64,000 nt of DNA from a virus (IMGVR_UViG_3300042339_001064:1-64000), one strand, 5' to 3'. Shown: positions 8,293 to 14,755, numbered from the stretch's first letter. Numbers and translations: made by a program. Notes: generated by a model from the sequence alone, not told the origin.

Positions 8293-9428
8293 GCAATTAT
8301 ATAAAAGTTTTACCTCCAGGAAATGTTTGGACTAGACCTGCACAATGGTTAGCAATGCCTAATATAATCAGTACAGATAAGAAATTCGCAGGGCTATTCG
8401 CTATATTTAATGATAGGCACAATGAATGTGGAATCCAATTGAATATAGGTTATAATGCAACTATAAACTGGGGAGATGGAACTTCTATTACAGGTAGTGC
8501 ATACCCTTGGATACAAAATAAAGTTTACAATTATTCAACTATAAGTTCTCCTGAAATTACAGATGAATTTGGTAGAGTTTATAAACACGTATTAGTGACT
8601 ATTGACATAAATCCATTAGAAACACTAGTTGATATGTATGTATCTCAAAAATCTAATCATTGGTTAGATATAAAATTGGCAAATACTGGTTTAAGAATTT
8701 TTGGGTTATGTAATGTTAGTAAGCCAATATGCCTAAAGGTTATAGACATGGTGTCAACAACTAGTCTGTCATTAAATCAAAATTACCATGGATTAGAGTT
8801 AATAGAGCGGCTTAGATTTGACACGTCATCTCCTACCATATTCGCTCCTTTTTCATTTTTGGGTAGAAATGCTAGAGATTTGAATGGAAACCCAATAAAT
8901 TTCACATTTAATGCTACGAATGTAAATGGTGGATTAGCTGGAGTTAACACTGATAAAATAGGAACAATTAGTTTGCCAAATGCGACAGATTGCACTAATT
9001 TTTTAAGAATAGGAAGTCAATTTGTTGGTGATGTAAGTATTCCAGTAGCTACAAGTTTAAGTAACTTTTGTTTTGGAGCTGTAAATGTTAGGAAAGTAAA
9101 ATTAATTAGTAGTTCAAACTTATTGAATCTTAATCAATCATTTTTTGACACACCAGCTTTAGAAGATTTAGAAATAACAAATTGTAGTGGCGTTACGACA
9201 ACCAATTTGTTCAATACTAGTAGAGCTTTAAAAAGATTAATTCTTACAGGATTAACTAGAGCTGTAAATATTTCAAATCAAAACCATAATGCATCATCAT
9301 TGAATGCATTTTTTACTTCTTTAGGCACAGCATCAGGAACACAAAATGTAACTATAACAGGAAATCCAGGAGCTGCAACGTGCAATCAATCAATAGCTAC
9401 AGCAAAAGGATGGACAGTAATAAATTAA
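8289..9428 (+). CDS. LRR/BspA-like putative receptor-binding protein with PKD-like N-terminus
   Basis: WTRPAQWL start, TINWGDGT, irregular LRRs, C-cap ITGNPGA...IATAKGWTV; ATGA overlap with the upstream gene. Confidence 0.6.
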   Translation: MSNYIKVLPPGNVWTRPAQWLAMPNIISTDKKFAGLFAIFNDRHNECGIQLNIGYNATINWGDGTSITGSAYPWIQNKVYNYSTISSPEITDEFGRVYKHVLVTIDINPLETLVDMYVSQKSNHWLDIKLANTGLRIFGLCNVSKPICLKVIDMVSTTSLSLNQNYHGLELIERLRFDTSSPTIFAPFSFLGRNARDLNGNPINFTFNATNVNGGLAGVNTDKIGTISLPNATDCTNFLRIGSQFVGDVSIPVATSLSNFCFGAVNVRKVKLISSSNLLNLNQSFFDTPALEDLEITNCSGVTTTNLFNTSRALKRLILTGLTRAVNISNQNHNASSLNAFFTSLGTASGTQNVTITGNPGAATCNQSIATAKGWTVIN

Positions 9429-9433
9429 AAAAT

Positions 9434-9667
9434 ATGCAAGAAATAATAGACACATCAGGCTTTTATAAGCAAACGGATAATGAATGGCTTTATGCTAAAT
9501 TTGAAGTAATAGCACCGACTTATACTATAACTAGAAAAGGTTATGAAGAAATAGGAATAGCAGAAAATAAAGAAGGGTGGGTATGGTATGATGAAGCTCC
9601 GCAAGAATATTTAGATTGGATAGAATCCATAAAACCTCCAAGTATAGATAACCTTACGAAAAATTAA
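9434..9667 (+). CDS. Small hypothetical protein (fibre-associated)
   Basis: Likely start ATG 9434 (MQEIIDTSGFYK...EGWVWYDEAP) rather than 9380, which overlaps the upstream gene. Confidence 0.6.
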   Translation: MQEIIDTSGFYKQTDNEWLYAKFEVIAPTYTITRKGYEEIGIAENKEGWVWYDEAPQEYLDWIESIKPPSIDNLTKN

Positions 9668-9779
9668 CTGAATAAATTTATAACATAACTATTAACCAAT
9701 GAAAATGCCTAAATTTGATTTAATCCTATTCTTAAAGTCTTTAATACTAGCCTTTATATCTTTTAAATAATTAAAAATA

Positions 9780-10208
9780 ATGGGAAAATATTTTAATGCT
9801 TTTATAATGTCTATAATAACTTTTTTTTCTCCTATAGCAGGATTATTATTAGCTGTCGGAGCTATGATTATTTTAGACACTATATTAGGCATTACAAAAG
9901 CCATTAAAAATGAAGGGTGGGAATCTGTTACTTCAAGAAAAGCAAGTGTTATTATAAGTAAATTTCTACTTTACCAATTAACAGTAATAACATTTTTTAT
10001 AATAGACTATAACTTAATAAATGAGTTTACAAAAGTACATTATCAAAACAATTATTTATTAACTAAATTTATAACACTTTCTTTATGTTTTGTAGAAGCA
10101 AAAAGTATAGATGAAAATATTAAATCTATATTTGGGTTTTCTATTTGGACAACCTTAAAAGAAGTTTTAATAAGAACACAAGAAATAAAAAAAACTACAA
10201 AAAAATAA
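9780..10208 (+). CDS. Phage holin-family membrane protein
   Basis: Hydrophobic helices, ILDTILGI.KA, S.K.S....K, E.KSIDEN pattern of Bacteroidota phage holins; directly upstream of endolysin. Confidence 0.75.
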   Translation: MGKYFNAFIMSIITFFSPIAGLLLAVGAMIILDTILGITKAIKNEGWESVTSRKASVIISKFLLYQLTVITFFIIDYNLINEFTKVHYQNNYLLTKFITLSLCFVEAKSIDENIKSIFGFSIWTTLKEVLIRTQEIKKTTKK

Positions 10209-10212
10209 AATT

Positions 10213-10680
10213 ATGAAATTATCAAAACATTTAGATCTAGCGGAAGTTACAAGATCAGAAACTGCAAAAAGAAAAGGAGTTAGCAACATGCCTACTCCTG
10301 AGCATATTGAAAACTTTAAATTATTGGCTGAAAAAATATTCGAGCCTATTAGAGAGCATTTTAATGTTCCTATTTTTATATCTAGTGGATATAGAAGCAA
10401 AGCTTTAAACCAAGCTATTGGTGGGAGTTTAACCTCACAACATTGCCAAGGTGAAGCAATTGATATTGATATGGATGGTAGCTCAAGCGGAGTTACTAAT
10501 GCTCAAGTATTCCAATTCATTAAAGACAACTTGAATTTTGACCAAATGATTTGGGAATTTGGAACAGATAAAAATCCTGATTGGGTTCATGTTTCTTATG
10601 AATCAACTGGTAAACAAAGAAAACAAATACTTAAAGCCATAAAAGTTAACGGTAAAACAAGTTATGTTCCTTATAAATAA
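10213..10680 (+). CDS. Peptidase M15A-family endolysin
   Basis: ISSGYRS..LN.AIGG...SQHCQGEAIDI and WVHVS Zn-binding motifs. Confidence 0.9.
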   Translation: MKLSKHLDLAEVTRSETAKRKGVSNMPTPEHIENFKLLAEKIFEPIREHFNVPIFISSGYRSKALNQAIGGSLTSQHCQGEAIDIDMDGSSSGVTNAQVFQFIKDNLNFDQMIWEFGTDKNPDWVHVSYESTGKQRKQILKAIKVNGKTSYVPYK

Positions 10681-10712
10681 ATTAAAACTACAAAAACTTA
10701 AAAAATAAAACT

Positions 10713-10973
10713 ATGAAATTTTTTAGAGAAATGTTTAGTGATGATAATTCAATTAATGAAAAATCTTTAATTGGATTTTTAGCTTTTATCATGATGTGCT
10801 CATTTGCAATTGTAGATATTGTTACAGGATATTTAGGAAAAGAGCTTGTTGTAAATGAATTTATATTCAATGCTTTTGAAGTGCTAGTGTTAGGTTCATT
10901 TGGTATTGCAGCTACAGAAAAAATTACAAGCATTATAAAATCTAATAAAAACGAAGAAAACGAAGCAGAATAA
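10713..10973 (+). CDS. Small 2-TM membrane protein (holin/antiholin-like)
   Basis: 86 aa, two hydrophobic segments, within the lysis cassette. Confidence 0.6.
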   Translation: MKFFREMFSDDNSINEKSLIGFLAFIMMCSFAIVDIVTGYLGKELVVNEFIFNAFEVLVLGSFGIAATEKITSIIKSNKNEENEAE

Positions 10974-11434
10974 TGAAATATTTATTTATAATTCTTATTG
11001 TTTTACTAGGAGTATATATGTGGCTATCACATGATAAGTTTGTTCAAAACGAAGCTATTATACAAAGACTAGAAGACAGTTTGTCTAGAAAAGTAGACAC
11101 CTTGATAGTAGAAAGAGATGTGGTAAAAGACCATTACATTAAATCTAAAGAGATTGTATATAAGATAGACGAAAGATACATTGCAGGCAAAGATTCTGTT
11201 TGTGATAGCTTAGTAGTAGCCCTAAAAACATCTCTTACAAACTGTGATAAAGTAATAGTTAAATCAGATACTTTAATTAAAACACTATTAGTTAGAGATA
11301 CTGTAAGGCAAAATCATATACAATATTTACAATCTAAAAATAAGTTTTCTTTAATTGCAGGCCCCACCTTATCACTTACCCCACAAGGCATTCAACCTGG
11401 AATAGGTATTTCATTTGGTTTTAAATTAAAATAA
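10973..11434 (+). CDS. Spanin-like protein
   Basis: N-terminal TM, coiled-coil middle, C-terminal beta-hairpin-like GISFGFKLK; lysis-cassette position. Confidence 0.5.
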   Translation: MKYLFIILIVLLGVYMWLSHDKFVQNEAIIQRLEDSLSRKVDTLIVERDVVKDHYIKSKEIVYKIDERYIAGKDSVCDSLVVALKTSLTNCDKVIVKSDTLIKTLLVRDTVRQNHIQYLQSKNKFSLIAGPTLSLTPQGIQPGIGISFGFKLK

Positions 11435-11454
11435 ATAAATAACAAGGATTAACT

Positions 11455-12570
11455 ATGAAAACATTGTCTAAAGAAGAATTAATAAGTAGGTTAGAAGCTA
11501 TTAATCGTAGTAATGCTATTATTTATTTTGACCTTAATGGTATAATTCTTGGAGTAAATTCTATTTTTTTAGAGACAATGGGATATAAAGAAGGAGACCA
11601 TGAAAAAATTATAGGTAAGCATCATAGTATTTTTGTTTCTACTGACTATGCTAATTCAAAAGAATATGAAAAGTTTTGGAAGAAATTAAGAGATGGTCAA
11701 TTTTATGAAGGGGAATTTGAAAGAGTTAAATTAGATGGAGAAGTTATTTATTTACAAGCAACTTATAATCCTATATTAAATGAAAATGGAGAGGTTACTA
11801 AGATAATGAAAATTGCTAATGATGTTAGTACAACAGTTATAGCAAAAAATGAAATTAATGCTGTAAGTAAAAGTAATGCTGTTATTTATTTTGATTGTGA
11901 TGGATATATTCTTGGGGCAAATTCTCTTTTTTTAAAAACTATGGGTTTTGATGAAAGAGATGAGAATAAAATTATTGGAAAACATCATAGTATTTTTGTA
12001 AGTTTTGAGTATTCAAAATCAGAAGAATACAAGGAGTTTTGGAAAAAACTAAGTAGTGGTAAATTTTTTGAGGGGGAATATGAAAGAAAAAAAATGAATG
12101 GGGATACTATTTATTTAAAAGCTACTTATAATCCAATACTTAATAATGATGGGGTTTGTAAAAAAGTAATGAAAATTGCTAATGATATTACTGAGACTGT
12201 TGTTAGTAAAAACAAAATCAATGAGTTATCTAAAAATTTACAAGTAGAATTAGATAATTCTAATAAGCTTAGAGTTGCTTTAGAGATAGAAAAAAATAAT
12301 GTTTTAGAAGATTTAGAAGCAACAATTAAAAAAAGTCAAAATGAATTAATTGGTACTATTGTTAAAACTGCTTTAGGAGTTATAGTTAGCGTTGGCTTTA
12401 TAACAACTGTAATGTATTCATTTGCAATTTTATCAAATAAAGATACTCAAATAATTGGATCAACTTGGAGTAATATGTTTAGTGTATTATTAACTAATGC
12501 ATTTTCTATTGTAGGTACTATTATGGGTATTAAATATGCTACTCAAGAAAAAAAAGAAGATAAAATATAA
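11455..12570 (+). CDS. Tandem PAS-domain membrane protein (PAS-PAS-coiled coil-2TM)
   Basis: Two near-identical PAS/PAC units (IIGKHHSIFVS...EY..FWKKL..G.F.EGE..R...G..IYL.ATYNPILN..G...K.MKIAND), coiled coil, two C-terminal hydrophobic helices; no kinase/MCP/GGDEF domain. Confidence 0.85.
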   Translation: MKTLSKEELISRLEAINRSNAIIYFDLNGIILGVNSIFLETMGYKEGDHEKIIGKHHSIFVSTDYANSKEYEKFWKKLRDGQFYEGEFERVKLDGEVIYLQATYNPILNENGEVTKIMKIANDVSTTVIAKNEINAVSKSNAVIYFDCDGYILGANSLFLKTMGFDERDENKIIGKHHSIFVSFEYSKSEEYKEFWKKLSSGKFFEGEYERKKMNGDTIYLKATYNPILNNDGVCKKVMKIANDITETVVSKNKINELSKNLQVELDNSNKLRVALEIEKNNVLEDLEATIKKSQNELIGTIVKTALGVIVSVGFITTVMYSFAILSNKDTQIIGSTWSNMFSVLLTNAFSIVGTIMGIKYATQEKKEDKI

Positions 12571-12579
12571 GTATTGTCG

Positions 12580-12587
12580 TATCTTTG
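12580..12587 (+). promoter_or_regulatory. Candidate Bacteroidota -7 promoter element
   Basis: TATCTTTG in the intergenic region upstream of 12682; a second TAATTTTG at 12626-12633. Confidence 0.4.
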
Positions 12588-12681
12588 TACTTAATAAAAA
12601 TTAAAATAATATTAAAATTATTTTTTAATTTTGTGTATTAGTTTAATTTTTAATATTTTTATATTAAAACCCACATAACAC

Positions 12682-13899
12682 ATGGTAAATCAACAAGTTG
12701 TAAATAAATTTTTAAATTGGACAAGCAGTAACAAAAATTATTTAGAAATTGCAAGACCTAATAAAAAAAGATTATTAAAAAAATTAAACAATAATAATTT
12801 TAACTTAACTTCAGAAGAGCTTGATTTTTTATTAAGTACATACGGAAGAAATGTTAAAAATACTAAACAAAATACTGAAGGTACTAATGTATGGGTTCCT
12901 TTAGAAATGGTAGATACAGTTAAAGAGTTAAATGCTATTTACCAAGAAAGTTTATCTATAGGAGTGCCTGTAGAAGATATAAAACATGGTTGGCTTAAAA
13001 ATGATAAGTCTTCAATGTTTTTTACTAATCCTTTATATAAGAAAAAAGAAGAAGATAAGTTTTATAATGAATTAGTTTCTGATTTACAAAAATTTTCACC
13101 TGTATTTCCTGAAATAAAAAGAACTGCTTCTAAGGAAGGACATTTGTTAGTTATAGATCCTGCAGATATACATGTAGGTAAACTTGCAAGAGCATTTGAG
13201 ACAGGGGAAGATTATAATAGTCAAATAGCAGTTAAAAGAGTTTTAGAAGGAGTCCAGGGAATTTTAGATAAAACATCTGGATTTAATATAGATCAAATTC
13301 TTTTTGTAGGAGGAAATGATATTTTACATATTGATACTCCAAAAAGAATGACTACTTCTGGTACTCCTCAAGATACAGATGGTATGTGGTATGATAATTT
13401 TTTGATAGCCAAGCAGTTGTATATAGATGTATTAACTATGTTATTACCTATAGCTAATGTTCACTTTGTATTTAATCCATCAAATCATGATTATACAAAT
13501 GGGTTTTTTTTAGCAGATGTAATTAAAACATATTTTAAAGATTGTAAGAATATTACTTTTGATTGTTCAATAGCTCATAGAAAGTATTATAGTTATTTTA
13601 ACAATTTGATTGGAACTACACATGGTGATGGGGCAAAACAATCTGACTTACCATTATTAATGGCTCATGAAAGCACAGATTGGAGTACTTGTAAGCATAG
13701 ATATATTTATACTCACCATGTACACCATAAAACTGCTAAAGACCATATAGGAGTTACAATTGAAAGTTTAAGAAGTCCTAGTGCTTCAGATAGTTGGCAT
13801 AGTAGAAATGGTTACACAGGAGTTCCAAAGGCAATTGAAGGATTTTTACATCATAAAGAATTTGGACAAATAAGTAGAATTACTCATATATTTAATTAA
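12682..13899 (+). CDS. Calcineurin-like metallophosphoesterase
   Basis: DIHVG, GNDILH, SNHD, HGD, HVHH motifs. Confidence 0.85.
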   Translation: MVNQQVVNKFLNWTSSNKNYLEIARPNKKRLLKKLNNNNFNLTSEELDFLLSTYGRNVKNTKQNTEGTNVWVPLEMVDTVKELNAIYQESLSIGVPVEDIKHGWLKNDKSSMFFTNPLYKKKEEDKFYNELVSDLQKFSPVFPEIKRTASKEGHLLVIDPADIHVGKLARAFETGEDYNSQIAVKRVLEGVQGILDKTSGFNIDQILFVGGNDILHIDTPKRMTTSGTPQDTDGMWYDNFLIAKQLYIDVLTMLLPIANVHFVFNPSNHDYTNGFFLADVIKTYFKDCKNITFDCSIAHRKYYSYFNNLIGTTHGDGAKQSDLPLLMAHESTDWSTCKHRYIYTHHVHHKTAKDHIGVTIESLRSPSASDSWHSRNGYTGVPKAIEGFLHHKEFGQISRITHIFN

Positions 13900-14074: not shown

Positions 14075-14755
14075 ATGACAATACGAGAAATAATTAATGG
14101 GTTTAGAGTTCCTATGGATAAGGGACTTCCTTCAGATGATAGTACATTTACTTATGCATATTTTTATCATTTAATGAAAATATGTAGAGGAGTTTTACTT
14201 TATGAAAAGATCAAAGATCCTGATTATAATTATAGTTTAAATTTACAAACATTAGATTGTGTACAATTACAATTAGCAGATACTAATGAATGTTGTGAAA
14301 AGTTACCTACAGGTTGTAAATGGTTAAAATCTAAAAAACCTATACCTAATACAATTAATAATATTATTACTAAAGTATATAATGATAGAGGAGATAACTA
14401 TACTAGAGTTGTTTCAGAATCTTCTAAATCATTTAGAAGATATAATGAATTAGGTAATACTGAAAATAACTTTAAATATTTAATAAAAAATAACTATTTA
14501 TTTGTTCCAGATTTAAATAGTCCACAATGGGTAAAACTTCAAGCATTATTTTATGATGATTTTGAAGTAAAAAATACTTGTGATAATGTTTGTGATTTTT
14601 TAGATACAGAATTTCCTTTAGATGAAAGGTTATTAGATAAAATGTATAATATGATGGCTGATAGAATATTAAAAACTTATCAATACTTTAATAGAGATGT
14701 TATAAATGATACATTTAATGAAGACGCAGGTTCCCCACAGAAAACAAATAAATAA
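14075..14755 (+). CDS. crAss-like tail ring/structural protein
   Basis: Position before IHF-like/tube/muzzle genes; Q.L.CV.L..D...C...C..L.S..PIP and FPLD pattern resembling Crassvirales ring proteins. Confidence 0.55.
   Translation: MTIREIINGFRVPMDKGLPSDDSTFTYAYFYHLMKICRGVLLYEKIKDPDYNYSLNLQTLDCVQLQLADTNECCEKLPTGCKWLKSKKPIPNTINNIITKVYNDRGDNYTRVVSESSKSFRRYNELGNTENNFKYLIKNNYLFVPDLNSPQWVKLQALFYDDFEVKNTCDNVCDFLDTEFPLDERLLDKMYNMMADRILKTYQYFNRDVINDTFNEDAGSPQKTNK

Follow-up and report, generated by a model that had tools for sequence, protein, structure and literature searches.

Lysis timing sets phage fitness, and the only well-studied signal-dependent form of it that we know of, the lysis inhibition of T4 and ICP1, responds to superinfection from outside the cell. 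In staphylococci, the LytSR two-component system controls the holin/antiholin-like LrgAB and CidAB, with LytR acting by host gene transcription. Here we describe a gene from the 64,000-nucleotide (nt) viral DNA stretch IMGVR_UViG_3300042339_001064:1-64000 (hereafter the window, meaning this whole stretch), which stands at the end of a lysis cassette and encodes a 371-amino-acid (aa) protein made of two PAS domains, a long helix and a C-terminal hairpin of two transmembrane (TM) helices. Considering the genes that surround its relatives, we propose that this PAS-hairpin protein may be an optional modulator of lysis timing, exerting signal-gated control of holin triggering through its PAS-helix-hairpin chain, a reading that we hold to be evenly balanced between right and wrong.

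The closest described parallel is T4 lysis inhibition, in which a holin, T, acts with the antiholins RI, a periplasmic sensor, and RIII, which is cytoplasmic (PMC11413866; PMC9636201). As in T4, the arrangement proposed here would have holin triggering tuned by an accessory lysis-cassette protein that contains a sensing part. RI senses superinfection from the periplasm and binds one cognate holin. The window protein, in contrast, has predicted cytoplasmic PAS domains on an invariant 2-TM hairpin, occurs in a family found beside diverse holin candidates, and shows no sequence relation to RI. Class II holins, and pinholin S21-68 with its antiholin S21-71, resemble it in having two TM helices, of which the second has a polar face and could line a small channel and collapse the proton motive force (pmf), and in being encoded next to the endolysin (PMC9636201). 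Unlike S21-68, the window protein is 371 rather than ~70 aa long, bears large cytoplasmic sensors, has no dual start and matches no holin family; its gene is optional and no signal-arrest-release (SAR) endolysin partner was seen. Finally, soluble PAS-PAS-MCPsignal chemoreceptors, of which BdlA and AerC are examples, share the succession of a PAS pair and a long signalling helix, whereas in the window protein the MCP (methyl-accepting chemotaxis protein) signalling hairpin is replaced by a membrane hairpin.

Architecture of the PAS-hairpin protein

The gene and its parts are placed as follows.

11455..12570, + strand: PAS-PAS-helix-hairpin gene, 371 aa, ATG start (open reading frame (ORF) list, two Pfam PAS matches, AlphaFold2 model)
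11512..11826, + strand: PAS domain 1, about residues 20-124, predicted cytoplasmic (best Pfam stretch 20-125; fold with a predicted local distance difference test score, pLDDT, of ~90)
11875..12189, + strand: PAS domain 2, about residues 141-245, a duplicate of PAS 1 (second Pfam stretch; model)
12190..12348, + strand: signalling helix, about residues 246-298, continuous with TM helix 1 and presumed to be a coiled coil (model)
12349..12432, + strand: TM helix 1 (TM1), about residues 299-326 (hydropathy, model)
12445..12543, + strand: invariant 33-residue segment T331-T363, comprising the end of the periplasmic loop and the amphipathic TM helix 2 (TM2) (alignments)

Pfam recognized PAS_3 (E 4.8e-22; 78.5 bits against a curated cut-off of 25.6) and PAS_9 (E 1.1e-20), each over two stretches, and no family besides PAS at E <= 0.01, with no MCPsignal, kinase or cyclase domain at that threshold. 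Aligned with each other, the PAS halves share 62% identity (70/113, E 1e-56) and so are a duplication. In an AlphaFold2 model built on a 17-sequence alignment (mean pLDDT 81.4), PAS folds at about 20-124 and 141-245 are followed by an unbroken 81-residue helix (246-326), a five-residue loop and a second helix (332-363), and the hydropathy maxima fall at 298-316 and 341-359. Pfam, halves, model and hydropathy thus bear out an earlier note, made from the window alone, that had described duplicated PAS domains with a 2-TM C-terminus and no MCP, kinase or cyclase domain. Its description of the protein as lacking an output domain does not hold, since the helix and hairpin recur as a conserved modular output behind a GAF domain, behind a single PAS domain or in a kinase-receiver set.

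PAS-hairpin genes lie beside endolysin genes in diverse phages

We called ORFs in 79 related loci from IMG/VR, clustered four genes on each side of the PAS-hairpin gene and scanned the cluster representatives. The locus surveys cover the best 80 loci of each scan, a subset of all hairpin loci. Clustering placed a recognized endolysin within four genes of the PAS-hairpin gene in 71 of the 79 loci, within two genes in 63 and directly adjacent in 31. Three further loci (L072-L074) carry a 196-aa neighbor matching phrog_3000 and the endolysin phrog_33083 (E 1e-10), which brings the total to 74. The commonest neighbor of all is a relative of an 86-aa 2-TM protein of the window (tm86), found within four genes in at least 52 loci and directly next to the PAS-hairpin gene in 38; these tm86 figures are minimum values, since the initial ORF picking overlooked copies in L036 and L066. 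Phage_holin_4_1 proteins are encoded within four genes in 18/79 loci, and at least one of endolysin, 2-TM family and Phage_holin_4_1 is present in 77/79; one locus, L007, is cut off upstream.

After the PAS proteins were collapsed at 90% identity, 27 of 30 clusters had an endolysin neighbor and 29 some lysis gene. Four unrelated types of endolysin occur as neighbors: GH19 (44 loci), Peptidase_M15 (21), GH24 Phage_lysozyme (12) and the phrog_3000 type. The genes for holin, endolysin, 2-TM protein and PAS protein follow one another in different orders from locus to locus, and the phage backbones differ, being crAss-like, ribonucleotide reductase (RNR)-bearing or PPK2-bearing. The tm86 family is itself diverse, at 13-57% identity to the window copy. 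The connection with lysis genes, first suggested from the window, therefore extends to homologues: an endolysin lies within four genes in 74/79 viral loci and on 4/4 contigs of metagenome-assembled genomes (MAGs).

Six loci (L013, L015, L020, L036, L037 and L066) were considered as cases in which the PAS-hairpin protein would be the sole membrane protein near the endolysin; this was ruled out, small TM ORFs (>=30 aa) being present nearby. The PPK2-bearing phages encode, ~2.4 kb downstream of the PAS-hairpin/GH19 pair (L013:9615-9767, L015:4566-4718, L020:9524-9676), a conserved protein of 51 aa that has one TM helix and an acidic tail and is possibly a small holin. A two-PAS hairpin gene of another phage (L077:6001-7113, 64% identical) sits amid genes for a UvsX-like recombinase, an exonuclease, a DnaB-like helicase and RNR.

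The helix and hairpin as a candidate output module

The segment T331-T363 is invariant in all 17 aligned two-PAS proteins, which are 64-84% identical overall to the window protein. At the nucleotide level, 51 different versions encode these same 33 residues, and almost all degenerate positions use 2-4 synonymous codons, including AGT/TCA serine switches. Since synonymous sites vary freely, the constraint acts on the protein; that the segment might be a DNA or RNA element was ruled out on the same grounds. Across 50%-identity representatives, TM2 has a mean majority-residue frequency of 0.86, against 0.54-0.57 for the rest of the module, TM1 being moderately conserved at 0.57. This pattern of substitutions shows strong protein-level selection on TM2. 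The TM2 helix is amphipathic, with Ser/Thr/Asn/Gly on one half; its hydrophobic moment of 0.82 exceeds that of TM1 (0.46), and its hydropathy averages only 0.89.

A full HMMER scan with the C-terminal 122 aa against 1.84 billion 50%-identity representatives returned 91 proteins at E <= 0.001, including 70 with E <= 1e-10. Nearly all of the listed representatives carry the module at the C-terminus, and their N-termini differ: among 59 scanned hairpin proteins, PAS domains precede it in four and a GAF domain in one (P0131, 360 aa), and most of the others consist of a short conserved cap and a very long helix. Helix length differs between members, and in the model of one cap-type protein a 149-residue helix leads into the hairpin. 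Single fusions to SOUL, GT2 and TsaD (P0136, P0158 and P0132) may be real or may be chimeras of gene calling or assembly. What defines the module is a C-terminal long helix followed by a 2-TM hairpin with a W-S-N ... F-S-I-[IV]-G-T-[IV]-x-G helix.

No Pfam family was consistently found among the 59 module-bearing proteins, and the whole 371-aa protein matched no PHROG at E <= 0.01. The C-terminal module gave weak PHROG matches to unknown-function families only (phrog_1544, E 0.007), and in the ESM Atlas one unnamed viral cluster with a score of 0.75, below the lead threshold. Judged by its recurrence behind different N-termini, the helix with its 2-TM hairpin is best regarded as a modular output domain; the hairpin module is phage-only and undescribed. 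The idea that it is a paralogue of tm86 was ruled out by profile comparison (hhalign probability 15%), and with it the dual-start arrangement in which an antiholin is a paralogue or isoform of its holin. A complex prediction for residues 280-371 with the 86-aa protein, run without controls, gave no answer (score 0.00).

The gene is accessory in its phage lineage

When related loci were searched from the exonuclease gene that follows the PAS-hairpin gene, none of 80 carried a PAS-hairpin gene, 53 of them having at least 2.5 kb of upstream sequence. One of the near-identical phages, L179, aligns with the window (blastn) on both sides of the gene: 12548-14998 matches L179 2552-5000 at 96.3%, and 10969-11451 matches L179 2097-2579 at 78.7%. 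The two matches abut, with a 28-nt overlap in L179, which defines a clean gene-sized indel.

~11452..12547, + strand: gene-sized indel, present in the window and absent in L179 (blastn)

Short A/T-rich microhomology, AAG(G/T)ATT, is found at both edges of the indel. The alignments show that the PAS-hairpin gene is accessory in this lineage, which argues against an essential holin.

The lysis cassette is also mosaic among near-identical phages. Compared over window positions 10680-11434, the window carries the M15 endolysin only; in L001 (100% identity in the PAS gene) and in L006, M15 is joined by a GH19 gene between the 86-aa and 153-aa genes; and L005, L030, L179, L181 and L182 have GH19 at that place and no M15 match.

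The commonest hairpin form accompanies a kinase and a receiver

The form with cap, long helix and hairpin is the commonest, matching more than 598 viral stretches, of which 80 loci were fetched. A 144-aa receiver-only protein (Response_reg only) is encoded beside or before the hairpin gene in 75 of the 80, and a 530-aa PAS-PAS-HATPase_c kinase occurs with the receiver (REC) in 63, 11 loci being cut off upstream. The PG_binding-GH19 endolysin lies within four genes in 42/80 loci. Across L099-L178 the triad comprises a histidine kinase of ~530 aa with N-terminal TM helices, a REC protein of ~144 aa and the hairpin protein (e.g., L100:2972-4561, L158:4570-5001, L145:1964-2638).

Because kinase and REC genes accompany the hairpin gene in most loci of the commonest form, the window protein is best read as a fused, one-piece version of a phage kinase-receiver-hairpin unit. 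This phage unit resembles LytSR in coupling a sensor kinase and a regulator to holin-like membrane proteins. Unlike in LytSR, the phage receiver (144 aa, Response_reg only) has no DNA-binding domain and the sensor of the window protein is fused to the membrane module, so that control would be post-translational and phage-encoded.

The PAS pair is probably of chemoreceptor type

The solved sequences nearest to the PAS domains are MmoS (3ewk, E 1.5e-7), NifL (2gj3) and Aer (8dik). Foldseek with the model likewise ranked 3ewk first (E 5e-16), followed by DosP, NifL, LOV-HK and FixL, the top matches being tandem PAS structures. Passages of PMC9668731 name H53, N85 and R115 as flavin contacts of Aer, with H132, N164 and R195 as their MmoS equivalents. 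HMMER alignments place the corresponding residues as follows.

Aer H53: H57 in PAS 1 and H178 in PAS 2, kept
Aer N85: R90 in PAS 1 and R211 in PAS 2, changed to Arg
Aer R115: A121 in PAS 1 and A242 in PAS 2, changed to Ala

All six positions are invariant across the 17-protein alignment (A1), and each PAS domain keeps one of the three side chains in the flavin-contact set of the Aer/MmoS/NifL type. With Arg and Ala at the N85 and R115 equivalents, a flavin cofactor is not assured. Of the suggestion that these are flavin- or heme-type PAS domains, the histidine matching Aer H53 survives and the other two flavin contacts do not; redox/O2 sensing by the pair is a plausible guess.

The nearest cellular homologues of the PAS pair are 35-45% identical. 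Seven of the eight examined are PAS(n)-MCPsignal proteins and one is a 3xPAS-STAS protein, which agrees with the chemoreceptor-type origin claimed in the earlier note. Some sources label the family "methyl-accepting chemotaxis protein", yet no MCPsignal domain is present in the 371-aa protein at E <= 0.01. Cellular 3xPAS-STAS proteins are encoded at L088:5935-7512 and at the related Vibrio loci L087, L089, L094 and L095; they share the motifs G-K-H-H and Y-L-Q-A-T-Y-N-P with the phage PAS domains at 38-44% identity, and this PAS subtype seems uncharacterized for ligand.

Family size and distribution

In a word-indexed search that scored 8000 candidates, 3934 proteins matched at E <= 0.001. The top 120 of them measure 247-392 aa, are 65-97% identical and all carry PAS families, and the family takes two forms, of ~370 aa with two PAS domains and ~247 aa with one. 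In IMG/VR, 238 of 246 matched stretches encode relatives, and the 79 loci analyzed above were fetched from these. A 185,579-species genome collection gave 19 matches, four of them full length; these four lie on short MAG contigs from four unrelated phyla, each beside endolysin PHROGs and therefore phage DNA, and the remaining 15 are cellular and match in PAS only. Against 50,697 phage records, tblastn with the whole protein gave only three matches, all at the level of PAS, and with the hairpin-family protein P0130 it gave none. Full-text literature searches, which do not extend to subscription-only papers, brought up no description of a phage lysis protein coupled to PAS, GAF or a kinase.

The window and its lysis cassette

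The window is a phage segment with a GC content of 20-33%, and its source is an uncultured crAss-like phage whose natural host probably belongs to the Bacteroidota. The other genes bearing on the cassette and on this assignment are listed below.

9780-10208, + strand: holin, Phage_holin_4_1 (Pfam E 4.9e-11)
10213-10680, + strand: endolysin, Peptidase_M15_3 / phrog_894 (Pfam and PHROG matches)
10713-10973, + strand: 86-aa 2-TM protein tm86, charged C-tail, holin-like (two hydropathy peaks)
10973-11434, + strand: 153-aa protein with an N-terminal hydrophobic helix, putative spanin-like (ORF list, hydropathy)
14075-14755: CrAss_Ring_2 / phrog_9863 structural gene (Pfam and PHROG matches)

Coordinates and family matches agree with the previously noted run of holin, endolysin and membrane protein before the PAS gene, the spacer between the 153-aa gene and the PAS-hairpin gene being 20 nt (11435-11454). 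Library scans assigned no Pfam or PHROG family to tm86; for the 153-aa protein, the best family match is DUF6808, which is sub-threshold (E 0.0099). The next gene downstream of the PAS-hairpin gene encodes an exonuclease (phrog_704). Over positions 9400-13000, a sigma-70 promoter scan gave 11 promoter-like sites against 23.6 expected, and a terminator scan gave 0 terminators. An RNA-library contig of 2899 nt matches window 11051-12951 at ~94% identity and runs from the upstream gene across the entire PAS-hairpin gene into the beginning of the exonuclease gene; it comes from one study in which DNA carry-over is possible and is hence weak as expression evidence. The RNA-run search matched a single run, with 0.14 of the sampled words.

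On the opposite strand, an 81-aa ORF (10688-10933, -) shadows the tm86 gene and is most likely not a gene; greedy ORF calling picked this antisense shadow ("x7") instead of tm86 in nine related loci. Further along the window, from 16065 to 55068, lie giant co-directional ORFs of 1669, 1725, 914, 440, 2530, 3439 and 2252 aa, of a kind usual in crAss-like phages, and downstream of them the coding strand switches and the GC skew changes sign at ~55.1 kb.

A model of lysis timing and its alternatives

As an optional modulator of lysis timing, the PAS-hairpin protein would sense an intracellular ligand or a redox/energy cue through its two cytoplasmic PAS domains. The signal would pass along the single long helix of the predicted fold, probably a dimeric coiled coil, into TM1, and the output of the hairpin would then bear on the step of lysis that takes place in the membrane, so that holins trigger earlier or later, as the gene neighborhood suggests. 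We favor a route independent of the holin family, in which TM2 oligomers would alter membrane integrity or the pmf, because one invariant hairpin coexists with diverse holin candidates and four endolysin families; a tailor-made contact with one holin is less likely. Passages of PMC9636201 report that holin hole formation follows a drop in pmf, that holins cross-complement between phages and that pinholins act by collapsing the pmf. The pmf response of holins and their cross-complementation would explain how one hairpin can stand beside diverse holin candidates, and a gated leak via the polar face of TM2 would fit pmf-triggered holins, cross-complementation and pinholin action. In its strongest form, which we offer tentatively and would sooner doubt than endorse, the invariant hairpin would be a phage-specific, signal-gated depolarizing leak channel, serving as a universal lysis-trigger output for fused PAS/GAF domains or for a phage kinase and receiver and timing lysis from the host redox/energy state, whatever the holin and endolysin.

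Several observations weigh against a role in lysis timing. Gene neighborhood shows linkage, not direction or mode of action, and the ends of lysis cassettes commonly receive unrelated accessory genes. Three loci (L011, L051 and L065) have a tm86 neighbor and no recognized endolysin within four genes, and in L077, the only clear exception in the 79 loci, the four genes on either side include no lysis gene. Holins usually have <150 aa, far fewer than the 371 aa of this protein, and its hairpin matches no holin family in Pfam or PHROGs. For channel formation, the amphipathic pattern of TM2 is the sole indication. On the sensor side, the N85 and R115 flavin-contact positions are replaced in both PAS domains, so that the ligand is not predictable, and none of the 50,697 phage records is a cultured phage with the family. 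Holins that self-assemble are, moreover, seldom as extremely invariant as the hairpin, whose constancy could come from a host target that is itself conserved.

That last point leads to a different reading, in which the hairpin would target a conserved host inner-membrane protein or process, such as respiration, transport, division or superinfection exclusion, and the gene would merely ride in the late operon. A conserved external target suits thirty-three invariant residues with free synonymous change better than self-assembly does, the gene is moron-like, accessory and edged by microhomology, the L077 copy lies amid replication genes, and the kinase-receiver-hairpin form has an endolysin within four genes in only 42/80 loci. 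Hitch-hiking alone is hard to fit, however, with an association that holds in 74/79 loci and 27/30 clusters beside four unrelated endolysin families, in shuffled orders and on different backbones, and we think such a non-lysis effector decidedly unlikely. We give slightly more weight, while still judging it unlikely, to a specific antiholin whose hairpin would bind the Phage_holin_4_1 protein or tm86 and, depending on the PAS signal, block it or set it free, in the manner of T4 RI and holin T. Its place in the lysis cassette, with tm86 adjacent in 38/79 loci and within four genes in at least 52/79, would suit an antiholin, as would the optional status of the gene, and antiholins with sensing domains are known (PMC11413866; PMC9636201). 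An invariant hairpin beside very diverse holin candidates nevertheless argues against a tailor-made antiholin: TM2 does not change while its candidate partners are diverse (13-57% identity for tm86) or swapped, Phage_holin_4_1 is nearby in only 18/79 loci, and the profile comparison (15%) leaves no room for a dual-start holin paralogue.

We consider it improbable that the PAS-hairpin protein itself works as a sensor-gated holin or pinholin, be it only in phages that lack any other holin. Its two TM helices, probably N-in/C-in, its charged C-tail and its polar-faced TM2 recall class II holins and pinholins as passages of PMC9636201 portray them, and in L013, L014, L015 and L020 the gene directly precedes the endolysin gene at the head of the operon. 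The TM helices, the charged tail and the endolysin neighborhood fit a holin; the 371 aa and the cytoplasmic sensor domains do not. A near-identical phage without the gene retains the rest of the cassette, the window already has a Pfam holin and a second holin-like protein, small TM ORFs are present in the loci that seemed to lack other membrane proteins, and the neighboring endolysins show no N-terminal TM or SAR helix for pairing with a pinholin. The earlier note's sensor-gated holin or antiholin thus stands, on genomic context, as a sensor-bearing membrane part of lysis cassettes, with an essential-holin role disfavored by the optional gene and a tailor-made antiholin disfavored as well. Its other suggestion, a decoy or sink whose PAS domains sequester a ligand or host signaling partner at the membrane, could draw on the closeness of the PAS pair to cellular PAS-PAS-MCPsignal chemoreceptors (35-45% identity); we find it scarcely credible, since it accounts neither for an invariant membrane hairpin as the most conserved part of the protein nor for the coupling of the same hairpin to GAF or to a kinase-receiver pair.

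Implications for phage lysis

With the lysis-timing reading poised evenly, the PAS-hairpin protein would add to phage lysis regulation a new variant that is coupled to a sensor and uses a membrane module not described before. The natural plus (window) and minus (L179) variants make a role in lysis directly testable, and the sensor-helix-hairpin layout, being compact, might also be used as a switch for lysis or for the membrane under ligand control. The family is abundant, with thousands of proteins and several hundred viral contigs, and is at present unannotated or misnamed "methyl-accepting chemotaxis protein". If the lysis-timing reading is true, cytoplasmic PAS, GAF or two-component input would let these phages decide lysis from the physiological state of the infected cell, a mode different from the response to superinfection.

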